Assembly: GCF_047663525.1 (NCBI RefSeq)
Contig: NC_092617.1
Span: forward strand, 5,511,550 to 5,575,549
DNA: 64,000 nt
Origin: Anas platyrhynchos
Taxonomy: Eukaryota
Direction of reading: 5' to 3'
The position numbers were made by a program, and so were the translations under genes. The notes beneath the pieces were generated by a model. It saw only the letters and a program-made list of their open reading frames with translations. It did not search any database and was not told the origin of the DNA. This document shows positions 4,709 to 31,359 of this stretch, piece by piece. The stretch's first letter is position 1. Every line of letters starts with the position of its first letter.

Positions 4709-5223
4709 TTATATGGCCAGGAACATCTCGACGGGGCAGTGGTCGCTCCCCATCACCTTATTGCGGATCTTACTATCGCACAGCGCCCCCTCCAGGCGTC
4801 GCGACAGGAGGCAATAATCCAACCTCCACCCCACGTTGCGCCCCCGCGCGCCCCCCAAATAGGTCCAAAAAGTGTAGGCGTGGGGCACGGCCGGGTAAAG
4901 GTGCCGAAAAGTATCCAAAAACCCCAACCCCAAAAGCTCCCCGAAACCTTCCCGTTCCTCGTCGGTGAAGCCGGGCGATTTTCGGTTGGCCCGCGGGTGC
5001 CGCAGGTCGATTTCGGCGTGGGCCACGTTGAGGTCGCCGCAGACGGCCACCGGTTTTCGGGCGTCCAAATTGGCCAAAAAGGAGCGGAAGGCGCGGTCCC
5101 AGCGTTGCCGGTAGGGCAAGCGCACCAAGCCCCGGCCCGAATTGGGGACGTAGGCGGCCACCACGTAGAGGGCCGGGAATTCGGCCGTCACCACCCGGCC
5201 TTCCGAGTCGTGCTCGGGGTCAC
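4709..5223 (-). CDS. APEX1: APEX1 last coding exon: the endonuclease/exonuclease/phosphatase fold from [16 protein letters not shown] through CPVEMFLAI*
   Basis: Minus-strand acceptor cccccag|GT at 5224-5226. Translation ...[53 protein letters not shown]...YTFWTY...[10 protein letters not shown]...[13 protein letters not shown] is collinear with human APEX1 residues ~145-318. The catalytic D210/N212/D283/D308/H309 equivalents are present. TAA at 4709-4711. Confidence 0.88.
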
Positions 5224-6660: not shown

Positions 6661-6835
6661 GCCAGGAAGGAGCGGAAGGCGCGGTCCCAGCGTTGCCGGT
6701 AGGGCAAGCGCACCAAGCCCCGGCCCGAATTGGGGACGTAGGCGGCCACCACGTAGAGGGCCGGGAATTCGGCCGTCACCACCCGGCCTTCCGAGTCGTG
6801 CTCGGGGTCACCTGGGGGGGAGAGAGTGGGTGGTG
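6661..6835 (-). pseudogene. Duplicated fragment of the APEX1 last exon (acceptor plus first ~135 nt), copy 1 inside the satellite array
   Basis: Near-identical to 5086-5240, including cacctggggggg (the rc of the acceptor cccccaggtg). The ORF track gives [41 protein letters not shown] and then diverges. Confidence 0.85.
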
Positions 6836-7464
6836 GCTAGTGGGGGGCGACCGGTGGCTACCAAAAGGTTTGGGGTCAATTGGTAGCAACTGGAAGGTTT
6901 TAGGGTCTACTGGTGGCTACCAAATGGTTTTGGGGTCAATGGTGGCCATTGGAAGGTCTTGGGGTCAATGGGGCAACCAGGGGTCTACTGGTGGCTACCA
7001 AAAGGTTTTGGGGTCAACCGAAGTGTTTTAGGGTCAATGGTGGCCATCGAAGGGTTTTGGGGTCAACTGGTGGCCACCAAATGGTTTTAGGGTCAATGGG
7101 GCAACCAGGGGTCTACTGGTGGCTATCAAAGGGTTTTGGGGTCAATGGTGGCCATTGAAGGGTTTTGGGGTCAATGGGGCAACCAAGAGTCTACTGGTGG
7201 CCATCGAAGGGTTTTGGGGTCAACTGGTGGGTACCAAAGGGTTTTGGGGTCAATAAAGGCTATTGAAGGGTTTTGGGGGCAATGGGGCAACCAAGGGTCT
7301 ACTGGTGGCTACCAAAGGGTTTTGGGGTCATCGGAAGGGTTTTGGGGTCAATAAAGGCTATTGAAGGGTTTTGGGGTCAATGGTGGCCACCAAAGGGTTT
7401 TGGGGTCAATGGGGCAACCAAGGGTCTACTGGTGGCTACCAAAGGGTTCTGGGGGCAACTGGTG

Positions 7465-7625
7465 GCCAGGAAGGAGCGGAAGGCGCGGTCCCAGCGTTGC
7501 CGGTAGGGCAAGCGCACCAAGCCCCGGCCCGAATTGGGGACGTAGGCGGCCACCACGTAGAGGGCCGGGAATTCGGCCGTCACCACCCGGCCTTCCGAGT
7601 CGTGCTCGGGGTCACCTGGGGGGAA
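7465..7625 (-). pseudogene. Duplicated APEX1 last-exon fragment, copy 2
   Basis: Same ~170-bp segment as copy 1, ORF 7377..7586 (-). Confidence 0.85.
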
Positions 7626-8344
7626 AAGGGGTCAGAGGTGGCTACCAGGGGTTGATGGGTGGCTACCAGAGGGTTTGGGGTCAATGGTGGCCATTGAAGG
7701 GTTTTGGGGTCTACTGGTGGCTACCAAAGGGTTTTGGGGTCAATGGTGGCCATTGAAGGGTTTTGGGGTCATCTGAAGGGTTTTGGGGTCAATGGTGGCT
7801 ACCAAAGGGTTTTGGGGTCATCCAAAGCGTTTTGGGGTCAATAAAGGCTATTGAAGGGTTTTGGGATCAATGGGGCAACCAAGGGTCTACTGGTGGCCAC
7901 CAAAGGGTTTTGGGGTCAATGGTGGCCATTGAAGGGTTTTGGGGTCAATAGTGGTGGTTTGGGGTCTACTGGTGGCTACCAAATAGTTTCGGGGTCAATG
8001 GGGCAACCAAGGGTCTACTGGTGGCCATCGAAGGGTTTTGGGGTCAACTGGTGGCTACCAAAGGGTTTTGGGGTCAATGGTGGTGGTTTGGGGTCAATAA
8101 AGGCTATTGAAGGGTTTTGGGGTCAATGGTGGCTACCAAAGGGTTTTGGGGTCAATGGGGCAACCAAGAGTCTACTGGTGGCTACCAAAGGGTTTTGGGG
8201 TCAATGGTAGCCATCGAAGGGTTTTGGGGTCAACTGGTGGCTACCAAAGTGTTTTGGGGTCAATGGTGGCCATTGAAGGGTTTTGGGGTCAATGGGGCAA
8301 CCAGGGGTCTACTGGTGGCCACCAAAGGGTTCTGGGGGCAACTG

Positions 8345-8515
8345 GTGGCCAGGAAGGAGCGGAAGGCGCGGTCCCAGCGTTGCCGGTAGGGCAAGCGCAC
8401 CAAGCCCCGGCCCGAATTGGGGACGTAGGCGGCCACCACGTAGAGGGCCGGGAATTCGGCCGTCACCACCCGGCCTTCCGAGTCGTGCTCGGGGTCACCT
8501 GGGGGGGAGAGTGGG
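8345..8515 (-). pseudogene. Duplicated APEX1 last-exon fragment, copy 3
   Basis: Same ~170-bp segment as copy 1, ORF 8260..8469 (-). Confidence 0.85.
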
Positions 8516-9959
8516 GGTGGCTACTAGGGGGCGACCGGTGGCTACCAAAAGGTTTGGGGTCAATTGGTAGCAACTGGAAGGTTTTAGGGTCTACTGGTGG
8601 CTACCAAATGGTTTTGGGGTCAATGGTGGCCATTGGAAGGTCTTGGGGTCAATGGGGCAACCAAGAGTCTACTGGTGGCTACCAAAAGGTTTTGGGGTCA
8701 ACCGAAGGGTTTTAGGGTCAATGGTGGCCATTGAAGGGTTTTGGGGTCAACTGGTGGCTACCAAAGGGTTTTGGGGTCAATGGTGGTGGTTTGGGGTCAA
8801 TAAAGGCTATTGAAGGGTTTTGGGGTCAATGGTGGCTACCAAATAGTTTCGGGGTCATTGGGGCAACCAAGGGTCTACTGGTGGCTACCAAAGGGTTTTG
8901 GGGTCAATGGTGGCCATTGAAGGGTTTTGGGGTCAATAGTGGTGGTTTGGGGTCTACTGGTGGCTACCAAATAGTTTCGGGGTCAATGGGGCAACCAAGG
9001 GTCTACTGGTGGCTACCAAAGGGTTTTGGGGTCAATGGTGGCTACCAAATGGTTTTGGGGTCATCTGAAGGGTTTTGGGGTCAATAAAGGCTATTGAAGG
9101 GTTTTGGGGTCAATGGTGGCCACCAAAGAGTTTTGGGGTCAATGGGGCAACCAAGGGTCTACTGGTGGCCATTGAAGGGTTTTGGGGTCAAGTGGTGGCT
9201 ACCAAAGGGTTTTGGGGTCAATGGTGGTGGTTTGGGGTCAATAAAGGCTATTGAAGGGTTTTGGGGTCAATGGGGCAACCAGGGATCTAATGGTGGCTAC
9301 CAAAGGGTTTTGGGGTCATCGGAAGGGTTTTGGGGTCAATGGTGGCCATTGAAGGGTTTTGGGGTCAACTGGTGGCCACCAAAGGGTTTTGGGGTCAATG
9401 GGGCAACCAAGGGTCTACTGGTGGCTACCAAAGGGTTTTGGGGTCAAGGGTGGCTACCAAATGGTTTTGGGGTCATCGGAAGGGTTTTGGGGTCAATGGT
9501 GGCAATTGAAGGGTTTTGAGGTCTACTGGTGGCTACCAAAGGGTTTTGGGGTCATCGGAAGGGTTTTGGGGTCAATGGTGGCAATTGAAGGGTTTTGAGG
9601 TCTACTGGTGGCTACCAAATGGTTTTGGGGTCATCGGAAGGGTTTTGGGGTCAATGGTGGCAATTGAAGGGTTTTGAGGTCTACTGGTGGCTACCAAAGG
9701 GTTTTGGGGTCAATAAAGGCTATTGAAGGGTTTTGGAGTCAATGGGGCAACCAAGAGTCTACTGGTGGCTACCAAAGGGTTTTGGGGTCAATTGGTGGCT
9801 ACCAAAGGGTTTTGGGGTCAATAAAGGCTATTGAAGGGTTTTGGGGGCAATGGGGCAACCAGGGGTCTACTGGTGGCTACCAAAGGGTTTTGGGGTCATC
9901 CGAAGGGTTTTGGGGTCAATGATGGTAGTTTGGGGTCAACAGGTGGCCACTGAAGGGTT

Positions 9960-11272: not shown

Positions 11273-11465
11273 CGATGCCGTAGGTGACGCTGAGGGGCTC
11301 TTGGCGGGCCAGCAGCCCCACCCCGCTGTAGCCCGGGCGCCCCTCGGGGCTGGCCCAAAATTGGTGGGGGAGCCCCGAAAGCGCCCGAATTTCGGGGGGC
11401 ACCGCGGGGGCCGCGCATTTGGTCTCCTGCAGGCACAGCACGTCCGGGGCCTCCTCCTGCACCCA
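11273..11465 (-). CDS. APEX1: APEX1 middle coding exon ([17 protein letters not shown]…SVTYGIG)
   Basis: Minus-strand acceptor ggggccag|TGG and donor ATCG|GTGAGA. The 193 nt enter in phase 0 and leave in phase 1, which matches the next exon. Aligns with human [65 protein letters not shown]. The catalytic E96 equivalent (LQETK) is present. Confidence 0.88.
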
Positions 11466-12244
11466 CTGGCCCCAAAAAAGCCCGAATTTAACCCAAAATG
11501 GTCCGGGGGGGGAACCCAAAAGAAGACAGGCAGAGACAGTCCAGACCCAACCCCAAAAATTGCCCCAAAATGTCCCAAATCCTAGAAATAACCCAAATCC
11601 TATAAAAACCCCAAATCCTGTAAATATCCCAAATCCCATAAATCCCCCAAAATCCCATAAATAAATCCCAAATCCCCCCAAATCCCATAAATCGTCCCAA
11701 ATCCCATAAATCCCAATCCCATAAACCACCCAAAACCCTATAAATCACCCCAAATCCCATAAATCGCCCCAAATCCCATAAATTGCCCCAAATCCCATAA
11801 ATTCCAACCCCATAAACCCCCCAAAACCCTATAAATAACCCCCAATTTCCCCAAATCCCATAAATTGCCCCAAATCCCCCAAATTCCAATCCCATAAATC
11901 CCCCAAAACCCTAAAAATCCCCCCCAATTTCCCCAAATCCCATAAATCGCCCCAAATCCCATAAATCACCCCAAATCCCATAAATTCCAATCCCATAAAT
12001 CCCCCAAATCCCATAAATCACCCCCAATTCCCCAAATCCCATAAATTGCCCCAAATCCCCCAAATTCCAATCCCATAAATCCCCCAAAACCCTAAAAATC
12101 ACCCCCAAGTTCCCCCAAATCCCATAAATCCCCCAAATCCCATAAATTCCAATCCCATAAATCCCCTAAAACCCCATAAATCGCCCCAAATCCCCAAAAT
12201 CCCAATCCCCTAAATCCCCCAAAACCCTACAAATCCCCCCCAAA

Positions 12245-12420
12245 TCCCACATCCAACACTTCCGGGGCCTCCTCCTGCACCCACTGGCCCCAAAAACGCC
12301 CGAAATTAACCCAAAATGGTCCGGGGGGGGAACCCGGAAAAAGACGGATAGAGGTTGTCCAGAAACAATCCCAAAAATCGCCCCAAAATGTCCCAAATCC
12401 TAGAAATGGCCCAAATCCTA
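12245..12420 (-). pseudogene. Duplicated APEX1 middle-exon 5' edge (acceptor, ~31 nt of exon WVQEEAPDV, ~150 nt of upstream intron), copy 1 of 6
   Basis: cccacatccaacacttccggggcctcctcctgcacccactggccccaaaaacgcccgaa matches the original at 11430-11500. Minus ORFs end …WVQEEAPEVLDVGFGGDL. Confidence 0.8.
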
Positions 12421-12954
12421 TAAATATCCCAAATCCTATAAAAATCCCAAATCCCATAAATATCCCAAATCCTATAAATACCCCAAAATCCCATAAATAA
12501 ACCCCAAAACCCCCGAAATCCCCGAAATCCCGCAAATCCCATAAATTCCAACCCCATAAATCCCCCAAAACCCTAAAAATCCCCCCCAAATCCCATAAAT
12601 CCCCCAAAATCCCATAAATTCCAATCCCATAAACCCCCCAAAACCCCATAAATAAACCCCAAATCCCCCCAAAACCCAGAAATCCCCCAAATCCCATAAA
12701 TTCCAATCCCATAAATCCCCCAAAACCCTATAAATCCCCCCCAAATCCCATAAATCCCCCAAAATCCCATAAATAAACCCCAAATCCCATAAATCGCCCC
12801 AAATCCCATAAATTGCCCCAAATCCCCCAAATTCCAATCCCATAAATCCCCCAAAAAAACATAAATAAACCCCAAATCCCCCCAAAACCCATAAATCACC
12901 CCAAATCCCCAAAATCCCAATCCCATAAATCCCCCAAAACCCTATAAATCCCCC

Positions 12955-13140
12955 CCAAATCCCACATCCAGCACGTCCGGGGCCTCCTCCTGCACCCACT
13001 GGCCCCAAAAACGCCCGAATTTAACCCAAAATGGTCGGGGGGGAACACCCGGAAAAAGACGGATAGAGGTTGTCCAGAAACAATCCCAAAAATTGCCCCG
13101 AAATGTCCCAAATCCTAGAAATAACCCAAATCCTATAAAA
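12955..13140 (-). pseudogene. Duplicated APEX1 middle-exon 5' edge, copy 2
   Basis: ORF 12942..13190 (-) ends [18 protein letters not shown]. Confidence 0.8.
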
Positions 13141-13624
13141 ACCCTAAATCCTATAAATATCCCAAATCCCATAAATACCTCAAATCCCATAAATACCCTA
13201 AAACCTCATAAATACCCCAAAATCCCATAAAGAAACCCCAAACCCCCCCAATTTCCCCAAATCCCAGAAATCCCGCAAATCCCATAAATTCCAATCCCAT
13301 AAATCCCCCAAAACCCTAAAAATCCCCCCCAAATCCCATAAATCCCCCCAAATCCCATAAATTGCCCCAAATCCCCCAAATTCCAATCCCATAAATCCCC
13401 CAAAACCCTAAAAATCCCCCCCAATTTCCCCAAATCCTATAAATCACCCCAAATCCCATAAATCGCCCCAAATCCCATAAATTGCCCCAAATCCCATAAA
13501 TTCCAATCCCATAAATCCCCAAAAACCCCCTAAATAAACCCCAAATCCCCCCAAAACCCATAAATCGCCCCAAATCCCATAAATCCCAATCCCATAAATT
13601 CCCCAAAACCCTATAAATCCCCCC

Positions 13625-13800
13625 CAAATCCCACATCCAGCACGTCCGGGGCCTCCTCCTGCACCCACTGGCCCCAAAAACGCCCGAATTTAACCCAAAA
13701 TGGTCAGGGGGGAACACCCGGAAAAAGACGGACAGAGGTTGTCCAGAAACAATCCCAAAAATTGCCCCAAAATGTCCCAAATCCTAGAAATAACCCAAAT
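13625..13800 (-). pseudogene. Duplicated APEX1 middle-exon 5' edge, copy 3
   Basis: Sequence cacgtccggggcctcctcctgcacccactggcc at ~13640. Confidence 0.75.
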
Positions 13801-14139
13801 CCTATAAAAACCCCAAAACCCTATAAATCCCCCAAATCCCATAAATAAACCCCAAATACCCCCAAATCCCATAAATCGCCCCAAATCCCCCAAATTCCAA
13901 TCCCATAAACCCCCCAAAACCCTAAAAATCCCCCCAAATCCCATAAATACCCCAAAATCCTATAAATCACCCCCAAATCCCATAAATTCCCCCAAATCCC
14001 CCAAATTCCAATCCCATAAATCCCCCAAAAAAACATAAATAAACCCCAAATCCCCCCAAAACCCATAAATCACCCCAAATCCCCAAAATCCCAATCCCAT
14101 AAACCCCCCAAAACCCTACAAATCCCCCCCAAATCCCAC

Positions 14140-14300
14140 ATCCAGCACGTCCGGGGCCTCCTCCTGCACCCACTGGCCCCAAAAACGCCCGAAATTAACC
14201 CAAAATGGTCGGGGGGGAACACCCGGAAAAAGACGGATAGAGGTTGTCCAGAAACAATCCCAAAAATTGCCCCAAAATGTCCCAAATCCTAGAAATAACC
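14140..14300 (-). pseudogene. Duplicated APEX1 middle-exon 5' edge, copy 4
   Basis: ORF 14116..14583 (-) ends [18 protein letters not shown]. Confidence 0.8.
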
Positions 14301-14754
14301 CAAATCCTATAAAAACCCCAAATCCTATAAATATCCCAAATCCCATAAATACCCCAAAATCCCATAAATAAACCCCAAATCCCATAAGTTGCCCCAAATC
14401 CCATAAATTCCAACCCCATAAACCCCCCAAAACCCTATAAATAACCCCCAATTTCCCCAAATCCCATAAATTGCCCCAAATCCCCCAAATTCCAATCCCA
14501 TAAATCCCCCAAAACCCTAAAAATCCCCCCCAATTCCCCCAAATCCCATAAATCACCCCAAATCCCATAAATTCCAATCCCATAAATCCCCCAAAACCCT
14601 AAAAATCCCCCCAAATCCCATAAATCGCCCCAAATCCCATAAATTGCCCCAAATCCCCCAAATTCCAATCCCATAAATCCCCCAAAACCCTAAAAATCCC
14701 CCCCAATTTCCCCAAATCCCATAAACCCCCCCAAACCCTATAAATCCCCCCCAA

Positions 14755-14930
14755 ATCCCACATCCAGCACGTCCGGGGCCTCCTCCTGCACCCACTGGCC
14801 CCAAAAACGCCCGAAATTAACCCAAAATGGTCCGGGGGGAACACCCGGAAAAAGACGGATAGAGGTTGTCCAGAAACAATCCCAAAAATTGCCCCGAAAT
14901 GTCCCAAATCCTAGAAATGGCCCAAATCCT
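14755..14930 (-). pseudogene. Duplicated APEX1 middle-exon 5' edge, copy 5
   Basis: ORF 14738..15517 (-) ends [18 protein letters not shown]. Confidence 0.8.
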
Positions 14931-15469
14931 ATAAAAACCCTAAATCCCATAAATGTCCCAAATCCCATAAATACCCCAAAATCACATAAATACCCCAAAA
15001 TCCCATAAATAAACCCCAAATCCCCCCAAATCCCATAAATCCCAGAAATTCCAATCCCATAAATCCCCCAAAACCCTATAAATCCCCCACAAATCCCATA
15101 AATACCCCAAAATCCCATAAATAAACCCCAAATCCCATAAATCACCCCAAATCCCATAAATCGCCCCAAATCCCCCAAATTCCAATCCCATAAATCCCCA
15201 AAAACCCCATAAATAAACCCCAAATCCCATAAATCCCATAAATCGCCCCAAATCCCATAAATTCCAATCCCATAAATCCCCAAAAACCCTAAAAATCCCC
15301 CCCAATTTCCCCAAATCCCATAAATCACCCCAAATCCACCCCAAAATCCCATAAATAAACCCCAAATCCCATAAATAAACCCCAATTCCCCCAAATCCCA
15401 TAAATCGCCCCAAATCCCCCAAATTCCAATCCCATAAACCCCCCAAAACCCTATAAATCCCCCCCAAAT

Positions 15470-15650
15470 CCCACATCCAGCACGTCCGGGGCCTCCTCCT
15501 GCACCCACTGGCCCCAAAAACGCCCGAATTTAACCCAAAATGGTCGGGGGGGAACACCCGGAAAAAGACGGATAGAGGTTGTCCAGAAACAATCCCAAAA
15601 ATTGCCCCGAAATGTCCCAAATCCTAGAAATGGCCCAAATCCTATAAAAA
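15470..15650 (-). pseudogene. Duplicated APEX1 middle-exon 5' edge, copy 6
   Basis: ORF 15451..15942 (-) ends [18 protein letters not shown]. Confidence 0.8.
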
Positions 15651-21180: not shown

Positions 21181-21575
21181 ACTGGTCCATACTGGTCGCA
21201 CTCACCCTCCTTGTCCCCGCCGTTCTCCTTCCGGGCTCGCTTGGGCATGGCTCCTCGTGGCCCCGCCCCCTGCGCGCCCCGCAGCCAATCAGCGCCCGCC
21301 GCGGGGAGCCCGGAGCCAATCAGCGCCCGCCGCGGGCCGGGCCCGGAGCCAATCAGCGGCGGCCGCGCGCGGGGGGCCCGGAGCGTGGCGCGCGGCGGCG
21401 GCGGCCGGAAGCGGAAGCGAGCGAGGGCCGGAAGCGGAAGCGCCTCAAACCGGAAGGGGAGGAGCTTCGAACCCGGAAGCGGAAGCGGAGAAGCTCCGGA
21501 GGCGGCGGAGGAGGCGGCGGAGCGGCGCGGGAGGCGGCGGTGACGTCAGAAGTGACGTCAGAAGTGACGTCAGCG
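21180..21575. promoter_or_regulatory. Bidirectional CpG-island promoter for OSGEP (+) and APEX1 (-): GC box, three NF-Y CCAAT boxes, ETS (CCGGAAGC) repeats, three tandem CRE (TGACGTCA) sites next to the OSGEP ATG, and a minus-strand splice donor
   Basis: ccccgccccc at 21261. gcagccaatcagcg at 21285, 21316 and 21349. ccggaagcggaagcg repeated at 21405-21490. tgacgtca at 21541, 21553 and 21565. Minus-strand AGG|GTGAGT donor (plus ctcaccct, 21201-21208) facing APEX1. Confidence 0.7.
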
Positions 21576-21690
21576 ATGCCGACGGTGCTGGGGCTGGAGG
21601 GCTCGGCCAACAAGGTGGGGGCGGGGCTGGTGCGCGACGGCCGCGTCCTCAGCAACCGCCGCGCCACCTACGTCACGCCCCCCGGGCACG
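21576..21690 (+). CDS. OSGEP: OSGEP (Kae1/TsaD family, KEOPS t6A tRNA threonylcarbamoyladenosine transferase) exon 1
   Basis: ATG at 21576. [38 protein letters not shown](G), versus human [39 protein letters not shown]. Donor G|GTGAGC, phase 1. Confidence 0.92.
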
Positions 21691-21699
21691 GTGAGCGGA

Positions 21700-22745
21700 A
21701 GTGACGTCACTCGGAACGCCCCCCGTGACGTCACTTCCCCCCCCCCGGTCCCCTCCGTGTGACGTCATTGCTTCAGATCCCCCCCTATAGGCCCGTTAGG
21801 CCTCGCCCCGGTGACGTCACGGACACTTCCTGTGACGTCACGGGGGCCGTGACCCCGCCCCCGTGACCTCTGACCCCGCCCCGTGACCTTTGACCCCTCC
21901 CTGTGACCTTTGACCCCCCCCATCCTGACCCCTGACCCCCTGGGACCCGTCACCCCCCTGTGGCCGATGCCCCCCCCTTGTGACCCCTCCCCCGTGACCT
22001 TTGACCCCAAGTGACCCCGGTGACCCCTGCCCGTGACCTTTGACCCCGCGGTGACCCCTGACCCCCTCCCCATGACCTTTGACCCCCCCATGACCCCCAA
22101 CCCCCCATGACCCACGTGACCAATTCCCCCTTGACCCCTGCCCCCCGTGACCCCTGACCCCTTTGTGACCCCGCCCCCGTGACCTTTGACCCCACCGTGA
22201 CCCCAACCGTGACCCCTGACCCCCCAGTGACCCCTCCCCATGACCTTTGACCCCCCCATGACCCCTAACCCCCCCGTGACCCACGTGACCAATTCCCCCT
22301 TGACCCCTTTCCCCCGTGACCCCTGACCCCTCTGTGACCCCACCCCATGACCTTTGACCCCACCGTGACCCTGAGGGTGACCTTTGACCCCTGGGTGACC
22401 CCTTACCGTGACCTTTGACCCCCCCATGACCCCTAACGCCCCTATGACCCACGTGACCAATTCCCCCCTTGACCCCTGCCCCCCGTGACCCCTGACCCCT
22501 TGTGACCCCACCCCGTGACCTTTGACCCCGCCGTGACCCTGACCGTGACCTTTGACCCCTGGGTGACCTTTGACCCCCCTCCCCATGACCTTTGACCCCC
22601 CCATGCCCCCTAACCCCCCTGTGACCCAATACCCACTTGACCCCTGCCCCCGTGACCCCTGACCCCTCTGTGACCCCACCCCGTGACCTTTGACCCCGCC
22701 GTGACCCTGAGGGTGACCTTTGACCCCTGGGTGACCTTTGACCCC
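21700..22745. repeat. OSGEP intron 1: five CRE sites in the first 150 bp, then a ~13-15 bp C-rich minisatellite (GTGACCCCTGACCCC / GTGACCTTTGACCCC)
   Basis: tgacgtca at about 21703, 21727, 21762, 21814 and 21833. More than 15 copies of TGACCTTTGACCC (the rc GGGTCAAAGGTCA is a perfect DR1 half-site pair). Confidence 0.85.
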
Positions 22746-22749
22746 GCAG

Positions 22750-22869
22750 GCTTCGCCCCCGGCCCCACGGGGCGGCACCACCGGGGGGCGGTGCTGGGGC
22801 TGGTGGCCGACGCCCTGCGGGAGGCCGGGCTCGGGCCCCGCGACATCGACGCCGTCGCCTTCACCCGCG
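22750..22869 (+). CDS. OSGEP: OSGEP exon 2
   Basis: Acceptor accccgcag|G. (G)FAPGPTGRHHRGAVLGLVADALREAGLGPRDIDAVAFTR(G), versus human [41 protein letters not shown]. Donor G|GTCAGT. Confidence 0.9.
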
Positions 22870-22874
22870 GTCAG

Positions 22875-25105
22875 TGGCGTGTGTTTGGCGTGTCCTTAGC
22901 GTGTGCTTAGCATGTGCTTAGCATGTTCTTAGGGTGTGCTTGGTGTGGCCTTAACATGGCCTTAATGTGTCCTTTGTATGTCCTTAGTGTCTCCTTAACG
23001 TGTCCTTAGCATGTCCTTAGCGTGTCCTTGGCATGTGCTTGGTGTGTGCTTGGCGTGTCCTTAGCATGGTCTTAGTGTGTGCTTCATGTGGCCTTGGAAT
23101 GGCTTTAATGTGTCCTTTGTATGTCCTTAGGTTGGCCTTAATCTGTTCTTAGTGTGTGCTTAGTGTGTGCTTAGCATGTCCTTAGCATGTGCTTAGTGTG
23201 TCCTTAGTGTGTGCTTAGCATGTGCTTCATGTGGCCTTGGTGTGGCCTTAATGTGTCCTTTGTATGTCCTTAGATTGGCCTTAATCTGTCCTTAGCGTGT
23301 CCTTAATATGTGCTTAGCGTGTTCTTAGCATGTGCTTAGTGCGTGCTTAGTGTGTGCTTAGCGTGTCCTTGGAGTGTGCTTAGTATGTGCTTAGTATGTT
23401 CTTAGCGTGTGCTTGATGTGTGCTTCGTGTGTCCTTGGTGTGGCCTTAATATGACCTTTGTATGTCCTTAGGTTGTCCTTAATCTGTCCTTAGTGTCTCC
23501 TTAATATGTGCTTAGCGTGTTCTTAGTGTGCCCTTAGTGTGTGCTTGGTGTGTGCTTGGCGTGTGCTTAGCATGTGAATAGCATGTGCTCAGTGTGTCCT
23601 TCATGTGGCCTTAACATGGCCTTAATGTGTCCTTTGTATGTCCTTAGGTTGTCCTTAATCTGTCCATGGTGTCTCCTTAACATGTCCTTAGCATGTCCTT
23701 AGCATGTTCTTAGCGTGTCCTTAGTATGGTCTTAGCATGTGCTTCATGTGGCCTTGGTGTGGCCTTGGTGTGGCCTTAATGTGGCCTTTGTATGTCCTTA
23801 GGTTGGCCTTAATCTGTCCTTAGCATGTCCTTAGTGTGTGCTTAGCGTGTTCTTAGCATGTGCTTGGCGTGTCCTTAGTATGTGCTTAGCATGTGCTTGG
23901 TGTGTGCTTCGTGTGGCCTTGGTGTGGCCTTAATGTGGCCTTTGTATGTCCTTAGGTTGGCCTTAATCTGTCCTTAGCGTGTGCTTAGCATGTCCTTAGC
24001 ATGTCCTTAGCATGTGCTTAGTGTGTCCTTAGTGTGTGCTTGGTGTGTGCTTAGCGTGTGCTTCGTGTGGCCTTGGTGTGGCCTTAATGTGTCCTTTGTA
24101 TGTCCTTAGGTTGGCCTTAATCTGTCCTTAGCGTGTCCTTAGTGTGTGCTTAGCGTGTTCTTAGCATGTGCTTAGTGTGTTCTTAGTGTGTGCTTGGCGT
24201 GTGCTTGGTGTGGCCTTGGTGTGGCCTTAACATGTCCTTAATGTGGCCTTTGTATGTCCTTAACCAGTCCTTAGCGTCTCCTTAACATGTGCTTAGCATG
24301 TCCTTAGCGTGTGCTTAGTGTGTGCTTGGTGTGTGCTTCATGTGGCCTTGGTGTGGCCTTAATGTGTCCTTTCTATGTCCTTAGGTTGGCCTTAATCAGT
24401 CCATGGTGTCTCCTTAATGTGTCCTTAGCATGTCCTTAGCGTGTTCTTAGTGTGTCTTTAGAGTGTGCTTAGTATGTTCTTAGCATGTGCTTGGTGTGTC
24501 CTTGGTGTGGCCTTAACATGTCCTTTGTATGTCCTTAGGTTTTCCTTATTTTGTCCTTAGTGTGTCCTAAGTGTGTACTTAGCGTGTCCTTAGCGTGTCC
24601 TTATCATGTGCTTGGCATGTTCTTAGTGTGTGCTTGGTGTGTGCTTGGTGTGTGCTTCGTGTGGCCTTGGTGTGTCCTTAATGTGGCCTTTGTATGTCCT
24701 TAGTGTCTCCTTAACATGTCCTTAGCATGTTCTTAGCATGTGCTTGGCATGTTCTTGGCATGTGCTTAGCATGTGTTTCATGTGGCCTTGGTGTGGCCTT
24801 AACATGTCCTTAGTATGGCCTTGGTGTGGCCTTAACCTGGCCTTAACATGTCCTTTGCATGTCCTTATGTTGGCCTTAATCTGTCCTTAGCGTGTCCTTA
24901 GTGTGTGCTTAGCGTGTTCTTAGAATGACCTTAGTGTGTCCTTAGTATGTTCTTAGCATGTGCTTGGCATGTGCTTGGCGTGTGCTTCATGTGGCCTTGG
25001 CGTGGCCTTAATGTGTCCTTTGTATGTCCTTAGGGTGTCCTTAATCTGTCCTTAGCATGTCCTTAATATGTGCTTAGCGTGTTCTTAGCGTGTTCTTAGC
25101 GTGTC
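22875..25105. repeat. OSGEP intron 2: ~10-11 bp GTGTCCTTAG/GTGTGCTTAG minisatellite organised in ~160-180 bp higher-order units
   Basis: catgtggccttggtgtggccttaatgtgtcctttgtatgtccttaggttggccttaatctgtccttag recurs about 13 times. The same short motif fills the 95-bp intron 4 (26359-26453). Confidence 0.9.
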
Positions 25106-25123
25106 GTCCCCCCCCCCCCGCAG

Positions 25124-25299
25124 GCCCCGGCATGGGGGCGCCGCTGGCGGTGGTGGCGGTGGTGGCGCGGACGCTGGCGCAGCTCTGGGACCGGCCCCTG
25201 CTGGGGGTCAACCACTGCGTGGGGCACATCGAGATGGGGCGCCTGCTGGCCCGCGCCCGCGACCCCCTCGTGCTCTACGTCAGCGGCGGCAACACGCAG
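25124..25299 (+). CDS. OSGEP: OSGEP exon 3 (metal-binding HxxGH…EMG motif)
   Basis: Acceptor cccccccccccgcag|[59 protein letters not shown]. Donor CAG|GTAGGC. Confidence 0.92.
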
Positions 25300-25309
25300 G
25301 TAGGCCCCC

Positions 25310-26255
25310 CTCCCCTCCCCTGTCGCGATAGCGGGCGATAGCGGGCGATATCGGCGTTATATCGCACGATATCGGCATTATATCGCACGATATTGGCGTT
25401 ATATCGCGCGATATTAGCAATATATTGCACGATATTGGCGTTATATTGCACGATATGGCATTATATCGCACGATATCGGCATTATATCGCGCGATATCAG
25501 CGTTACATCAGGCGATATCAGCATTATATCACACGACGTTGGCATTATATTGCATGATACGGCATTGTATCGCACGATATCGGCGTTATATCGCACAATA
25601 TTGGCATTATATCAGGCGATATTGGTGTTATATGGCACGATATTGGCATTATATTGCGCGATATGGGCACTATATTGGGCAATATTGGCATTATATCGTG
25701 AGATATCGGTATTATATCGTGAGATATCAGCATTATATCACGATATATTGCCATGATATTGGTGTTATAACCTGAGATATTGGTCTTTTATCGTGAGATA
25801 TCACGAAATCCTGCACGATACTGTGATTATATCACACGATAGTGAGCGGTATCGTGAAATATCACGGGCTATCACACAATATCGTGCAATATAACGCGAT
25901 ATCCCGCGACGTCACGCAGTATTATGGGATATCGTGGGGGCATTGCTGCGATATCACGGGGGTATCGCGGGATATCTCGTGGTATCATGGGGATATCATG
26001 CGATATCTCGCGATATCATGGGGGTATTGTGCGATATCTTGCGATATCATGAGATATCGCGCAATATCTCGCGATATCATGGGGATATAGTACGATATCT
26101 TGTGATATCATGGGGATATCTCATGATATCATGGGGATATTTTGCAATATCGTGGGATATCACGCGATATCTCACGATATCATGGGGATAATATGGGATA
26201 TCGCGCGATACCTTGCGATATCACGCCCTATCGTGACATATCACGGGGTCCCCCC
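25310..26255. repeat. OSGEP intron 3: ~20-bp CGATATCG-core minisatellite arranged as two inverted half-arrays (quasi-palindrome)
   Basis: Left arm 25320-25800 is tatatcgcacgatatcggcat units. Right arm 25830-26250 is the reverse-complement form (gcgatatcatggggatatc…). The centre lies near 25800-25830. Confidence 0.8.
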
Positions 26256-26262
26256 CCCCCAG

Positions 26263-26358
26263 GTGATCGCCTTCTCACGCCGGCGCTACCGAATCTTCGG
26301 CGAGACGCTGGACATCGCCGTGGGCAACTGCCTGGACCGCTTCGCACGCGTGCTCAAG
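26263..26358 (+). CDS. OSGEP: OSGEP exon 4
   Basis: Acceptor tccccccccccag|[35 protein letters not shown], versus human [32 protein letters not shown]. Donor AAG|GTGGGG. Confidence 0.92.
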
Positions 26359-26453
26359 GTGGGGACCCCCCCCGCGTCACACGCGTGTCCTTAGCGTGTC
26401 CTTGCGTGTTCTTGGCGTGTTCTTAGCGTGTTCTTGGCGTGTCCTCCCCACAG

Positions 26454-26503
26454 ATCTCCAACGACCCCAGCCCCGGCTACAACATCGAGCAGATGGCCAA
26501 GAG
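26454..26503 (+). CDS. OSGEP: OSGEP exon 5
   Basis: Acceptor tcctccccacag|ATC. ISNDPSPGYNIEQMAK(R), identical to human. Donor AG|GTGAGC. Confidence 0.92.
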
Positions 26504-26636
26504 GTGAGCGAGGCGACCCCAAAATAGCCCAAAATTAACCAAAATTAACCAAAATGGAGCAAAATAACCCCAAAATGGACCAAAATGGACTAAAATGGAC
26601 CAAAATGGACTAAAATGACCCCAAAATTGGCCGCAG
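26504..26636. repeat. OSGEP intron 5 (133 bp): CCAAAATGGAC short tandem repeat
   Basis: ccaaaattaaccaaaattaaccaaaatggagcaaaataaccccaaaatggaccaaaatggactaaaatggacc. Confidence 0.8.
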
Positions 26637-26715
26637 GGGGAGCAAGCTGGTGGAGCTGCCCTACGTGGTGAAGGGAATGGACGTCTCCTTCTCGGGGCTG
26701 CTGTCGCACGTCGAG
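26637..26715 (+). CDS. OSGEP: OSGEP exon 6
   Basis: Acceptor ccgcag|G. (R)[26 protein letters not shown], versus human [27 protein letters not shown]. Donor GAG|GTGAGG. Confidence 0.92.
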
Positions 26716-26724
26716 GTGAGGACC

Positions 26725-28635
26725 CCAAAGACCCCAAAAGGGCCCAAAAAACCCCAAAATGTCCCCAAAAGCCCCCAAATGTCCCCAAAATCCCCGAAAG
26801 GACCCAAAAGACCCCAAAAGGGCTTAAACGTCCCTAAAAGGGTCGTGATGTCATCAAGAGCCCAAAGTCTCCAAGAGGAACCCAACGACCCCAAAATGTC
26901 CTCAAAGACCCCAAAGACCCGAAAATGTCCCCAAAGACCCCAAAAGATCCCAAAAGACCCCAAAATGTCCCAAAAATCTCCCAAATGTCCCCAAAATCCC
27001 CGAAAGGACCTAAATGTCCCTAAAAGGGTCGTGATGTCATCAAGAGCCCGTTGTCCCCAAAAGGAACCCAATGACCCCAAAAGATCCCAAAAGACCCCAA
27101 AATGTCCCAAAAATCCCCAAAATGTCCCAATAATCCCCCAAATGTCCCCAAATTCCCCAAAAGGACCTAAATGTCCCTAAAAGGGTCGTGACGTCATCAA
27201 GACCCCAAAGTCCCCAAGAGGAACCCAACGACCCCAAAATGTCCCCAAAGACCCCAAAAGGACCCCAAAGACCCCAAAAGGGCCCAAAAGACCCCAAAAT
27301 GTCCCCAAAATCCCCAAAAGGACCCAAAAGACCCCAAAAGGACTTAAATGGCCCTAAAAGGGTTGTGACGTCATCAAGACCCCAAAGTCTCCAAGAGGAA
27401 CCCAACGACCCCAAAATGTCCTCAAAGACCCCAAAAGGACCCCAAAGACCCCAAAAGGGCCCAAAAGACCCCAAAATGTCCCCAAAATCCCCAAAAGGAC
27501 CCAAAAGACCCCAAAAGGGCTTAAACGTCCCTAAAAGGGTTGTGACGTCATCAAGAGCCCAAAGTCTCCAAGAGGAACCCAACGACCCCAAAATGTCCTC
27601 AAAGACCCCAAAATGTCCCCAAAGACCCCAAAAAGTCCCAAAAGACCCCAAAATGTCCCCAACCCCCCCCCAATGTCCCCAAAAGGACCTAAATGTCCCT
27701 AAAAGGGTCGTGATGTCATCAAGACCCCAGAGTCCCCAAGAAGAACCCAATGACCCCAAGAGGAACCCAAAGACCCCAAAAGATCCCAAAAGACCCCAAA
27801 ATGTCCCAAAACTCCCCCAAATGTCCCCAAAAGCCCCCAAATGTCCCCAAAATCCCCAAAAGGACCTAAGTGTCCCTAAAAGGGTCGTGACGTCATCAAG
27901 AGCCTAAAGTCCCCAAGAGGAACTCAATGACCCCAAGAGGAACCCAAAGACCCCAAAAACTCCCAAAAGACCCCAAAATGTCCCCAAAGACCCCAAAAGG
28001 GCCCAAAAGACCCCAAAATGTCCCCAAAATCCCCGAAAGGACCCAAAAGACCCCAAAAGGACTTAAACGTCCCTAAAAGGGTTGTGACGTCATCAAGACC
28101 CCAAAGTCTCCAAGAGGAACCCAACGACCCCAAAAGGTCCCCAAAGACCCCAAAAGTCCCGAAAGACCCCAAAATGTCCCAAAAATCCCCAAAATGTCCC
28201 AAAACTCCCCCAAATGTCCCAAAAATCCCCAAAAGGACCGAAGTGTCCCTAAAAGGGTCGTGATGTCATCAAGACCCAAAGTCCCCAAGAGGAATTCAAC
28301 GACCCCAAGAGAACCCTGAAGACCCCAAAAGATCCCAAAAGACCCCAAAATGTCCCAAAAATCCCCAAAATGTCCCAATAATCCCCCAAATGTCCCCAAA
28401 GTCCCCAAAAGGACCGAAATGTCCCTAAAAGGGTTGTGACGTCATCAAGAGCCCAAAGTCCCTAAGAGGAACCCAACGACCCCAAAAGGTCCCCAAAGAC
28501 CCCAAAAGACCCCAAAGACCCCAAAAAGTCCCCAAAGACCCCAAAATGTCCCCAAAAATCCCCCAAATGTCCCCAAAATCCCCAAAAGGACCTAAGTGTC
28601 CCTAAAAGGGTCATGACGTCATCAAGTCCCCTCCC
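26725..28635. repeat. OSGEP intron 6: ~175-180 bp tandem repeat, ~11 copies, each with a GTCGTGACGTCATCAAGA (CRE-like) core
   Basis: Units start near 26840, 27030, 27185, 27365, 27545, 27710, 27885, 28080, 28260, 28440 and 28610. K/P-rich repeat-translation ORFs of the [14 protein letters not shown] type on both strands. Confidence 0.9.
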
Positions 28636-28642
28636 CCCCCAG

Positions 28643-28708
28643 GCGGTCGCCCCCCGGCTCCTGGCCACCGGCGAGGCCACCGCTGAGGACCTCTGCTTCT
28701 CCCTACAG
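28643..28708 (+). CDS. OSGEP: OSGEP exon 7
   Basis: Acceptor ctcccccccag|GCG. [22 protein letters not shown], versus human [22 protein letters not shown]. Donor CAG|GTTTTG. Confidence 0.9.
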
Positions 28709-28709
28709 G

Positions 28710-30925
28710 TTTTGGGGCAAATTCTGGCGATTTTGGGGTTCCTGGGCGAAGGGGTTGGATATTAAAGGGATTTGGGGGCAAATTATGGGGTTTTGGGGGG
28801 GTTTTAGGGGGTTTTGGGGTTCTTAAGGGGCTTTGGGGGGGCTTCAAGGGGTTTTGGGGTGGATTATGGGGGGTTGGGGGAGGTCTTCATGGGGTTTTGG
28901 GGGAAATTTATGGGGTTTTGGTTTTTTTTAGGGGTTTTGGGGGGATTTTATGGGGTTTTGGGGTTCTTAATGGGTTTTGAGGGGTTTTGGGGCGGTTTTA
29001 GGGGGTTTTGGGGTTCTTAAGGGGCTTGGGGGAGCTTCAAGGGGTTTTGGGGTGAATTATGGGGGGTTGGGGGAGGTCTTCATGGGGTTTTGGGGGGAAT
29101 TTATGGGGTTTTGGGGGTTTTTAGGGGTTTTGGGGGGATTTTATGGGGTTTTGGGCTTTTTAAGGGGTTTTGAGGGGATTTGGGGGGATTTTACGGGGTT
29201 TTGGGGTTCTTAAGGGTCTTTGGGGGGGCTTCAAGGGGTTTTGGGGTGGATTATGGGGGGTTGGAGGAGGTCTTCATGGGGTTTTGGGGGGAATTTATGG
29301 GGTTTTGGGGTTTGTAAGAGATTTTGGGGGGAATTTATGGGGTTTTGGGGTTCTTAAGGTTTTTTTGGGGGTACATTCATGGACTTTTGGGATTCTTATG
29401 GGGCTTTGGGGGGTTTTAAGGGGATTTGGGGGGATTTTAAGGGATTTTGAGTATTCTTAAGGAATTTTGAGGGTTCTTAAGGGTTTTTTGGGATCCATTT
29501 ATAGGGTTTTGGGGATAGTTAATGGGTTTTTGGGGGTTTTAAGGGGATTTGGGTGACTTTTAAGGGATTTTTTTGTATATTATGGGTTCTTGAGGTTTCT
29601 TAAGGTTTTTTTGGGATCCATTTATGGACTTTTGGGATTCTTATGGGGATTTTGGGGCATATTTAGGGGATTTTGGGGCATATTTAGGGGATTTGGGGAT
29701 ACGAAGGCGTTGGGCGACGTCAACGGGGTTGGGTGACCCCGTTGGGTCATGGTTGACCCCAAAGGTCATGGGGTGACCCCAAAGGTCACGGGTTGACCCC
29801 AAAGGTCACGGGGCGACCCCGTTGACCCCGTTGACCCCGCAGGAGGTCGTAAAGACTTTTGGGCGGTTCTTAAGGTTTTTTTGGGGTCCATTCAAGGACT
29901 TTTGGGGTTCTTATGGGGCTTTGGGGGGTTTTAAGGGGATTTGGGGGGATTTTAAGGGATTTTGAGTATTTTTAAGGATTTTTGGGGGTTCTTAAGGGTT
30001 TTTTGGGGTCCATTTATAGGGTTTTGGGGATAGTTTATGGGTTTTGTGCATTTTTAAGGGGATTTGGGGGAATTCTAAGGGATTTTGTGTATTCTTAAGG
30101 AGTTTTTGGGTATGCTTAAGGTTTTTTGGGGTACATTCACGACCTTTTGGGATTCTTATGGGGATTTTGGGGCATATTTAGGGGATTTTGGGATACGAAG
30201 GCATTGGGCGACGTCAACGGGGTTGGGCGACCTCAACGGGATCGGTTGACCCCAACGGGACTCCCTTGACCCTATTGGGTCCTGGTTGACCCCAAAGGTC
30301 ATGAGTTGACCCCAAAGGTCACGGGTTGACCCTAAAGGTCACGGGGCGACCCCAAAGGTCACGGGGCGACCCCGTTGACCCCGTTGACCCCGCAGGAGGT
30401 CTTAAAGACTTTTTGGAGGTCCTTAAGGGTTTTTTGGGGTCCATTCATGAACTTTTGGGGTTCTTATGGGGCTTTGGGGGGATTTTAAGGGATTTTGGGT
30501 ATTCTTAAGGATTTTTGAGGGTTCTTAAGGGATTTTTGGGATCCATTCATAGGATTTTGGGGATAGTTTATGGGTTTTCCGTTTTTTTAAGTGGATTCGG
30601 ATAACTTTTAAAGGATTTTTTGTATATTATGGGTTTTTGAGTGTTCTTAAGGGTTTTTTGGGATCCATTCATGACCTTTTGGGATTCTTATGGGGATTTT
30701 GGGGTATATTTAGGGGATTTTGGGGCATATTTAGGGGATTTTAGGATATGAAGGCGTTGGGCGACGTCAACGGGATCGGTTGACCCCAAGGGGACTCTGT
30801 TGACCCCATTGGGTCCTGGTTGACCCCAAAGGTCATGGGTTGACCCCAAAGGTCCCGGGTTGACCCCAAAGGTCACGGGGCGACCCCAAAGGTCACGGGG
30901 CGACCCCGTTGACCCCGCTGACCCC
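28710..30925. repeat. OSGEP intron 7: G-rich GGGGTTTTGGGG-type minisatellite plus a ~540 bp higher-order unit present three times (29700-29853, 30190-30405, 30730-30929)
   Basis: Each higher-order unit ends …tgaccccaaaggtcacggggcgaccccgttgaccccgttgaccccgcag|gag. Only the third is followed by real exon 8. The first two end in pseudo-acceptors at 29841-29842 and 30394-30395. Confidence 0.85.
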
Positions 30926-30929
30926 GCAG

Positions 30930-31020
30930 GAGACGGCGTTCGCCATGCTGGTGGAGGTGACGGAGCGCGCCATGGCCCTGACCCGCGCCCCGGAGCTGCT
31001 GCTGGTGGGCGGGGTCGGCT
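30930..31020 (+). CDS. OSGEP: OSGEP exon 8
   Basis: Acceptor gaccccgcag|[33 protein letters not shown](C), versus human [31 protein letters not shown]. Donor T|GTGAGT. Confidence 0.92.
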
Positions 31021-31100
31021 GTGAGTAGGGGGGGCTGGGGACACATTTTTGGGGCAAAAAACAACGATTTTGGGTACACGGGGTTCACGGCCACCCCACA

Positions 31101-31176
31101 GGCAACCGGCGCCTCCAGGAGATGCTGCAGGAGATGTGCGACGCCCGCGGCGCCCGGCTCTGCGCCAGCGACGAGA
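31101..31176 (+). CDS. OSGEP: OSGEP exon 9
   Basis: Acceptor caccccacag|GC. (C)[24 protein letters not shown](R), versus human [26 protein letters not shown]. Donor AG|GTGGGG. 80-bp introns on either side. Confidence 0.92.
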
Positions 31177-31256
31177 GGTGGGGATAATTTTGGGACGATT
31201 TGGGGTTTTTTGGGGAGTTTTGGGGAGTTTTTGGGGATTTTTTGGGGTGTTTTTAG

Positions 31257-31355
31257 GTTCTGCGTGGACAACGGGGCCATGATCGCCCAGGCCGGGTGGG
31301 AGATGCTGCGGACGGGGCAGGTGACCGACATCGCCCGCTCCGGGGTCACCCAAAG
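31257..31355 (+). CDS. OSGEP: OSGEP exon 10
   Basis: Acceptor gtgtttttag|G. (R)[32 protein letters not shown](R), versus human [34 protein letters not shown]. Donor AG|GTGGGG. Confidence 0.92.
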
Positions 31356-31359
31356 GTGG

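Follow-up and report, generated by a model that had tools for sequence, protein, structure and literature searches.

The OSGEP locus and the repeat units of intron 7

We examined a 64,000-nucleotide stretch of Anas platyrhynchos DNA (contig NC_092617.1, positions 5,511,550 to 5,575,549; hereafter the window), in which the genes follow the order APEX1-OSGEP-TEP1, the usual vertebrate arrangement. OSGEP was located by tblastn with a human OSGEP sequence used purely as a probe, which returned 11 co-linear blocks on the plus strand. After refinement of the borders the model consists of 11 exons encoding 335 amino acids, and all of its introns are GT-AG. In intron 7 we identified three tandem units of approximately 540 bp, each ending in a copy of the exon 8 acceptor, and the assembled transcripts use only the last of these. 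The gene features needed here are the following (a slash in a sequence marks a splice border).

21576..33250, plus strand: OSGEP coding region, 11 exons, 335 amino acids; protein identical to XP_071885829.1 (isoform X4)
28643..28708, plus strand: OSGEP exon 7, 66 nt, phase 0, ending ...CTCCCTACAG; from the gene model and mRNA contigs L001 and L002
28709..30929, plus strand: OSGEP intron 7, 2221 bp, 88% covered by tandem repeats (Tandem Repeats Finder, TRF), G-rich on the coding strand
30930..31020, plus strand: OSGEP exon 8, 91 nt, GC-rich, followed by the donor GCT/GTGAGT; from the gene model and mRNA

A search of the protein collection with the model returned the Anseriform OSGEP cluster, which has 12 members. 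The tblastn model, this cluster and the mRNA contigs agree with a preliminary description of the locus, made from the sequence alone, that had named the gene as OSGEP and the exon as its eighth.

The acceptor is contained in a 31-mer (GACCCCGTTGACCCCGTTGACCCCGCAGGAG or GACCCCGTTGACCCCGYTGACCCCGCAGGAG, ending in CCCCGCAG/GAG) found at 29815-29845, 30368-30398 and 30902-30932, for which the chance expectation is 0 (100 dinucleotide-preserving shuffles). The third copy differs at one base, having T>C at -12 relative to exon 8. In a direct reading of 29000-31600 the AG dinucleotides lie at 29841-2, 30394-5 and 30928-9, the same positions that the preliminary description had given. After the AG, copy 1 continues as GAGGTCGTAAAG, copy 2 as GAGGTCTTAAAG and copy 3 as GAGACGGCG, the beginning of exon 8, so that the earlier claim of distinct continuations with only the last entering the exon also stands. 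The three-copy arrangement holds with small corrections: exon 8 starts at 30930 rather than 30929, and the distances from the upstream copies to the real site are 534 and 1087 bp, not 540 and 1090. The acceptor-to-acceptor spacing is 553 and 534 bp, and direct-repeat analysis of the region gave spacings of 515, 533 and 553 bp. TRF did not report the period of approximately 540 because its maximum period is 500.

28787..29359, plus strand: 193-bp higher-order G/T-rich minisatellite, 3 copies, 5' of the triplicated block; homologous to the goose 192-bp array (TRF)
29328..29842, plus strand: repeat unit 1, ~515 bp, 5' edge approximate; ends in pseudo-acceptor 1 (AG 29841-29842)
29843..30395, plus strand: repeat unit 2, 553 bp, opening with GAGGTCGTAAAG and closed by pseudo-acceptor 2 (AG 30394-30395)
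30396..30929, plus strand: repeat unit 3, 534 bp, opening with GAGGTCTTAAAG and closed by the genuine acceptor of exon 8 (AG 30928-30929)
29703..29842, plus strand: TGACCCC/AGGTCA 20-mer module with (GACCCCGTT)x3 GCAG, unit 1; yUnAy candidates TTGAC, A at -18 and -9
30197..30395, plus strand: TGACCCC/AGGTCA module, unit 2; same make-up as in unit 1
30750..30929, plus strand: TGACCCC/AGGTCA module, unit 3; real branch-point, polypyrimidine and AG region, T>C at -12

The three units align with 86% mean column identity (MAFFT) and 85–88% pairwise identity, differing by 12–15% substitutions and by several indels of whole 20-mers. Their homology passes through CCCCGCAG/GAG and stops 3 nt into exon 8. 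Unit 1 has no clean 5' boundary and merges into the older minisatellite near 29328. Each unit is built of ~360 nt of G/T-rich subrepeats, 20-21 nt long and grouped into ~123-nt blocks, followed by 110-170 nt of the 20-mer GGTTGACCCCAAAGGTCACG, then (GACCCCGYT)x3 and GCAG. With nested periods of 20-21, ~123 and ~540 nt, the units deserve the name of higher-order repeat that the preliminary description had used. The TGACCCCAAAGGTCA module, at 0-1 mismatch, is restricted to intron 7. The 20-mer TGACCCCAAAGGTCACGGGT (29754-29808, 30287-30361 and 30821-30895) contains AGGTCA and TGACC as inverted repeats that resemble half-sites and is thus quasi-palindromic; allowing 0-1 mismatch, it has 11 occurrences, all in intron 7.

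Use of the last acceptor

Transcript evidence comes from three assembled short Logan contigs, L001 (SRR31060321) and L002 (SRR29268397) from duck and L004 (SRR20314584) from goose. All three align to the window as spliced mRNAs with junctions exactly as modelled. Exon 7, with its 3' end ...CTTCTCCCTACAG, is joined to exon 8 as ...CTCCCTACAG/GAGACGGCG, that is 28708 to 30930, with a single GAG. The alignment of the units and this junction place the real 3' splice site inside the last of three tandem units, as had been proposed. The 12 duck and goose proteins of the cluster, NCBI isoforms X3 and X4 among them, all keep ...CFSLQ/ETAFAML, and the sole deviant is an old Ensembl model whose reading continues into intron 7. 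A hypothetical isoform consisting of exons 1-7 and the translation after 29843 (274 amino acids) was compared with the protein collection; nothing matched its tail, and the best match, the canonical duck cluster, covered 86% of the isoform and went no further than exon 7. An earlier query with an 88-amino-acid chimera was uninformative owing to a length effect, as only proteins of at most 154 amino acids were among the matches listed and duck OSGEP was absent from them. Splicing to an upstream copy would lengthen the mRNA by 1087 or 534 nt, and phase-0 read-through from 29843 or 30396 meets a stop after 40 or 30 codons, respectively. Among the assembled transcripts, only the last, genuine acceptor is used. 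The alternative splicing implied by the preliminary description finds no support among assembled transcripts or annotated proteins.

Upstream of the splice border the three sites are closely alike. The pyrimidine fraction from -23 to -4 is 0.65 at 29843, 30396 and 30930 alike, the nearest upstream AG lies at -38 in each case, and yUnAy candidates within 40 nt of the AG place an A at -18 and -9 in all three, with the sequence TTGAC except at -9 of the real copy, which has CTGAC instead. The change at -12 aside, the acceptors are identical over >50 nt, and on a rough acceptor matrix they tie as the best among the 90 AGs of intron 7. The branch-point and polypyrimidine context, earlier called identical, is thus equivalent in the three copies but includes one pyrimidine-to-pyrimidine change. 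Differential RNA accessibility was rejected as a discriminator since the mean unpaired probability predicted for -30 to +3 (0.20 at 29843, 0.20 at 30396, 0.22 at 30930) shows no useful difference.

Downstream of the border the sites differ. The first 100 nt after the pseudo-acceptors have 43–46% GC, ~40% T and 12-13 GGG starts, compared with 73% GC, 16% T and 3 GGG starts after the real site. No GT of intron 7 scores above 1.8 on a rough donor matrix; the real donor, GCT/GTGAGT, lies 91 nt on. Exon definition, the dependence of choice between duplicated splice sites on the flanking exon, and the action of G-runs as intronic signals are all established. Only the last copy has an exon context, and its GC-rich exon and GTGAGT donor would permit exon definition there. 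The upstream copies, followed by T- and G-run-rich intronic minisatellite that offers no usable donor, would then not be chosen. From this comparison of the flanks, exon definition is likely the reason that splicing picks the last copy.

The donor of exon 7 is itself weak. In duck it reads CAG/GTTTTG (-4.6 on a rough donor position weight matrix) within CAG/GTTTTGGGG (28706-28725), far from consensus and yet confirmed by mRNA. The goose donor (L003 9726-9750) reads CAG/GTAGGGGGCGGTTTTGGGG, the duck sequence being 10 nt shorter. Intron 7 thus combines a weak donor with a triplicated acceptor.

The arrangement can be compared with several known systems. Reed and Maniatis reportedly placed duplicated 3' splice sites in competition in cis in 1986, and the exon-definition model is credited to Berget and colleagues. 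As in those constructs, identical acceptors lie in cis and the choice would be set by the flanking exon and downstream donor rather than by the acceptor; unlike them, OSGEP is a natural locus with a spacing of 534-553 bp, where usage is known qualitatively. OSGEP intron 7 shares with NAGNAG sites the presence of multiple AGs with a common upstream context. However, NAGNAG sites lie 3 nt apart, share one branch point and are both used, giving in-frame isoforms, whereas the OSGEP copies are >500 nt apart, have their own branch-point regions and lead to a premature stop (out of frame in effect), with no use detected; only the 30930 junction occurs among the three assembled mRNAs and all annotated proteins. 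Intronic pseudo-exons and decoy splice sites are said to have been described by Sun and Chasin in 2000. Like these, the OSGEP pseudo-acceptors are good-scoring sites that are ignored, lacking a partner site or exonic enhancers and lying amid silencer-like sequence. However, they are exact paralogues of the real site, not chance matches. Recursive splice sites likewise place an acceptor in a long intron 5' of the final one, but they regenerate a 5' splice site (AG/GTAAGT), and the OSGEP copies read CAG/GAGGTC, with no GT at +1. Recursive splicing and a chain of 3-nt GAG micro-exons (GAG/GTCGTA, GAG/GTCTTA) were both rejected for lack of a GT at +1; the micro-exon route would also leave extra GAG codons, and the mRNAs carry exactly one.

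Origin of the triplication and related junctions

We compared the loci of swan goose (L003), the ptarmigan Lagopus muta (L005), emu, Dromaius (L006), white-tailed eagle and yellow-legged gull. The swan goose locus has the same G/T-rich arrays, with 192-bp and ~124-bp periods, and a single TGACCCC-type module with a single acceptor, ...ccccgtcggtggcag/GAGACG. The AG/GAGACG border is kept in ptarmigan, emu, white-tailed eagle and yellow-legged gull, with one junction copy each. The comparison of orthologous introns that the preliminary description had called for thus yields one copy in each of these five birds. The duck units are ~67% identical to the goose module and 85–88% identical to each other, which, together with the single copy elsewhere, places the origin or homogenization of the triplication on the duck side of the duck-goose split. 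Judged from these loci, the triplication is specific to the duck lineage.

The start of units 2 and 3 (GAGGTCKTAAAG) has its counterpart in the goose 124-bp repeat, where the motif reads GAGGATTCTTAAAG or GAGCATTCTTAAAG. As this motif pre-exists in the goose repeat, the duplication appears to have joined the exon border to an older repeat motif across the shared GAG, which suggests microhomology or unequal exchange as the origin. The possibility that the repeat created a new acceptor was rejected, since the AG/GAGACG border is kept in five other birds and the intron position agrees with the human protein alignment. Donor-side 'copies' in ptarmigan exon 8 and in gull were also set aside, being only 72–76% matches to generic minisatellite and not junction duplications.

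The preliminary description had treated the triplication as a singular curiosity. However, there are at least four such acceptor duplications in the window. During mapping of the mRNA contigs, exon fragments matched several places, so all junctions of the three genes were screened and the matches aligned. OSGEP is flanked by an Exo_endo_phos gene (APEX1-like, minus strand) and a TROVE-domain gene (TEP1-like, plus strand), and three further families were found at their acceptors.

41818, plus strand: TEP1-like exon 3 acceptor, 2 extra copies, 37-41 exon nt in the unit, 100% identity over the matched part
11465, minus strand: APEX1-like exon 3 acceptor, 6 extra copies, 23-30 exon nt, exon part 98.9% identical (178/180)
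5223, minus strand: APEX1-like exon 4 acceptor, 3 extra copies, 145 exon nt, 100% identity in all copies

In all three families the complete exon lies behind the last copy and the AG is kept in every copy. None of the donor junctions screened in the three genes of the window has a copy of high identity.

The TEP1-like exon 3 acceptor (ccctatag/GTGGCCCTATTTGCCC...) has upstream copies with starts at ~40999 and ~41484 (40931-41860, plus strand), embedded in a CCCCATTGA minisatellite. The APEX1-like exon 3 acceptor (ttttggggccag/TGGGTGCAGGAGGAGGCCCCGGACGTGCTG) occurs 7 times in 11273-15560 on the minus strand, and the exon-equivalent starts of its upstream copies lie near 12283, 12998, 13667, 14172, 14794 and 15507. 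Each of these is followed by a donor-like GAT/GTGGGA, use of which would define an in-frame pseudo-exon of 33 nt. APEX1-like exon 4 is copied over its first 145 nt together with the acceptor, and this segment occurs 4 times in 4779-8560 (minus strand; the real site is at 5223, with copies at 6811, 7615 and 8498). The sequence derived from the exon is identical at 435 of 435 positions, compared with 82–91% in the intronic flanks, a pattern that suggests either constraint or gene conversion with the real exon as its anchor.

Similar arrays occur in other birds. In ptarmigan the OSGEP exon 3 acceptor with 34 exon nt is found 12 times (11 extra) over the 11-kb intron 2 (L005 3619-13048), with the real copy last. 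In emu (L006 5733-9213) the 21-mer GAGAGGGGCCCAGGCGTCCGG fills introns 6, 8 and 9 and directly adjoins three donors (GTGAGGGGCCCAGGCGTCC), those of exons 6, 9 and 10. The real emu donors read GTGAGGGGCCC and the internal copies GAGAGGGGCCC, with GA where the donors have GT; this is the one repeat family adjoining a donor that was examined.

All five high-identity junction families (four in duck, one in ptarmigan) are on the acceptor side, and nearly all copies keep the AG. We do not claim a preference for acceptors over donors as a general rule from so small a sample (two-sided binomial p ~0.06), and the report of both acceptor- and donor-side copies in chicken (Hron et al. 2026, PMC12954441) weighs against one. 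Stuttered acceptors might be something other than neutral debris, kept by exon-anchored gene conversion or by a filter that tolerates or uses upstream pseudo-acceptors and purges downstream pseudo-donors, but we think this improbable. If true, the asymmetric filter would shape how dot-chromosome introns grow. Both the acceptor-only bias and the perfect conservation of exon-derived segments within diverged units are tentative observations that would be of interest if confirmed genome-wide.

Other OSGEP introns show related features. The exon 2 acceptor (21691-22749) has the same final 12-mer as that of exon 8 (TTGACCCCGCAG) and closes a 168-bp higher-order GTGACCTTTGACCCC array, the upstream near-copies of which read GCGG or GCCG and not GCAG. 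Intron 2 (22877-25105) contains ~200 copies of GCGTGTCCTTA, each closing with an acceptor-like CCTTAG, and intron 6 (27055-28592) contains a C-rich CCCCAAAAG array in the orientation opposite to the G-rich array of intron 7. Pyrimidine-tract-plus-AG motifs therefore occur by the hundred in these introns. A palindrome resembling the cAMP response element, TGACGTCA, occurs 21 times compared with 0.12 expected (21541-21840, 27189-28621, 33168-33197 and 36678-36697): 8 copies surround the APEX1/OSGEP bidirectional start, one lies in each 177-bp unit of the intron 6 array, 3 are directly 5' of the exon 11 acceptor and 2 are in the first TEP1-like exon. Transcripts reading through from OSGEP into the TEP1-like gene also occur (33233-36586 and 31355-38682). 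L001 uses a donor within exon 11 (GAGGTGGAG/gtgacg) that is joined to 36586 and then to 11 TEP1-like exons, and NCBI isoform X3 (366 amino acids) passes from exon 10 to a TEP1-like exon at 38682 in a different frame.

Sequence stuttering and the meaning of the triplication

A class of such structures has been published. Hron et al. (Genome Biol Evol 2026, PMC12954441) described 'sequence stuttering' or 'exon stuttering' of chicken dot-chromosome introns, with 190 of the 236 affected introns on dot chromosomes, a median of 4 copies, and a source within 1 nt of the exon border in >90% of cases. Chicken OSGEP (chr34, a dot chromosome) is among the 115 genes that they list. Splicing was not tested and duck was not analysed in that study, and its mechanism is speculation only, namely G-quadruplexes (G4) or replication stress, or meiotic conversion (PMC12954441). 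According to a second preprint, tandem repeats account for >70% of dot-chromosome intron sequence, with units in multiples of 10-11 bp, the coding strand of introns is enriched in G4 motifs, and these introns are hard to sequence and assemble; its description of introns fits intron 7. In the literature the term stuttering is used only by Hron et al. and the second preprint.

The duck locus resembles the chicken cases in having introns that are near-wholly imperfect tandem repeat, in units tens to hundreds of bases long, between intact exons, with lineage-specific blocks that begin at an exon border and carry the splice site. Tandem repeats make up 90% of the whole window, with strong strand skew. 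The OSGEP introns >100 bp are 80–99% tandem repeat, each long one having its own motif family, and the exons 0% (TRF); the gene spans 11.7 kb in duck and 33 kb in ptarmigan. The intron 7 repeats, nested as described, are confined to that intron, and the coding sequence is intact, as the match to XP_071885829.1 shows. With one module in goose and one junction copy in four further birds, the copy number is recent and lineage-specific, and the splice site is copied from a source no more than 1 nt away from the exon border. Placement on a dot chromosome rests on orthology to chicken chr34 and on sequence character rather than on chromosome assignment; the duck OSGEP protein is encoded on a 6.33-Mb record. 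We also re-ran the strict exon-stuttering screen of Hron et al. on the window (≥20 nt of exon copied, blastn-short bit score >42.1). It flagged TEP1-like exon 3 and APEX1-like exons 3 and 4, and did not flag OSGEP exon 8, where only GAG (3 nt) of the exon is shared. Unlike the chicken cases, the duck OSGEP unit is a three-level nested repeat of ~540 bp with only these 3 exon nucleotides. By its sequence features, the OSGEP exon 8 case is a duck instance of sequence stuttering, agreeing with the class in all characters that could be assessed here. A further character of the class is extensive variation of intron length within a species; the duck data comprised a single genomic sequence, together with mRNA contigs.

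We consider it likely that the 3'-terminal ~540 bp of intron 7 was triplicated in tandem in the duck lineage by instability of the stuttering type, that the last copy is used, and that the arrangement is a tolerated by-product and not a device. The duplicated segment would run from a GAGG(A)T(T)CTTAAAG motif in the pre-existing G/T-rich minisatellite to the border of intron 7 and exon 8. GAG, with which exon 8 begins, also stands at its junctions, which suggests microhomology or unequal exchange. A right-hand breakpoint at the exon border means that each unit carries full branch-point candidates, a C-rich tract and the AG, and tandem duplication across the acceptor leaves an intact exon behind the last copy only. 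Transcripts using an upstream copy would meet the premature stop and presumably be removed by nonsense-mediated decay (NMD).

Several points weigh against this interpretation. The mutational step, whether slippage, unequal exchange or conversion, is one that we infer, and our splice-site scores come from approximate matrices of our own making, not a validated model. The splice-proximal 50 nt are 95–97% identical among the copies, compared with 77–83% for the rest of the unit, which could reflect constraint or, equally, gene conversion anchored on the selected real copy, and the AG is kept in all 13 pseudo-acceptors of the four duck families. The main residual uncertainty is that low-level, NMD-masked use of the pseudo-acceptors is compatible with the assembled data.

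Such use leads to the alternative that the upstream copies act as 3' splice sites at an appreciable level, producing transcripts removed by NMD, either as splicing noise that reduces the output of OSGEP or as a regulated switch to unproductive splicing. The three acceptors are equal on every upstream criterion, the exon 7 donor is weak, assemblies under-represent NMD targets, and Hron et al. (PMC12954441) remarked that such copies 'create potential alternatively spliced transcripts'. The preliminary description had expected its view to fail if transcripts used only the last site and the upstream copies lacked a functional branch point; the assembled transcripts do use 30930 only, but the upstream copies keep plausible branch points. 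However, we judge the alternative unlikely, as its junction is in no assembled contig, annotated isoform or predicted protein, no usable donor lies downstream of the pseudo-acceptors, the units have diverged by 12–15%, and any regulation would be very young given that goose and four other birds lack the arrangement. It is less probable still that the repeated module is itself functional, whether it serves as a decoy or sink for U2AF or U2, as an array of intronic splicing enhancers or, at the DNA level, as AGGTCA/TGACC inverted repeats that bind factors of the nuclear-receptor type. The confinement to this one intron of TGACCCCAAAGGTCACGGGT, which contains these inverted repeats and occurs 11 times, and the position of the best-conserved part of the unit next to the splice site, would fit such a function. 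However, goose has a single, diverged module, a scan of the whole window matched no Rfam family, and every long intron has a different, equally repetitive motif, which argues for instability over designed arrays. Least credible is that the three units are an artefact in which copy number was mis-estimated in a G4-rich minisatellite. Dot-chromosome introns are known to be difficult in this respect and the duck evidence comes from one genomic assembly, but substitutions at 12–15% and indels of whole 20-mers are not what the duplication or collapse of a read pile would leave behind, comparable arrangements exist at four junctions of the window and in the independent ptarmigan assembly, and the chicken arrays were verified by raw nanopore reads (Hron et al., PMC12954441).

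The triplication alone matters little: it adds a duck example to what was reported from chicken in 2026, and OSGEP was already on the chicken list. Beyond Hron et al., the present analysis adds transcript evidence that the last copy is used. The locus is of value as a clean natural test case, with three near-identical acceptors in one intron, known transcript outcomes and three siblings within 64 kb. It also calls for caution in annotation, as ab initio predictors could choose any of the three acceptor sites. Together these junctions make it possible to study the accuracy of splice-site choice in introns that are ~90% unstable minisatellite, whether use of pseudo-acceptors puts an NMD load on essential housekeeping genes such as OSGEP and APEX1, and whether such a load feeds the gene attrition reported for dot chromosomes.

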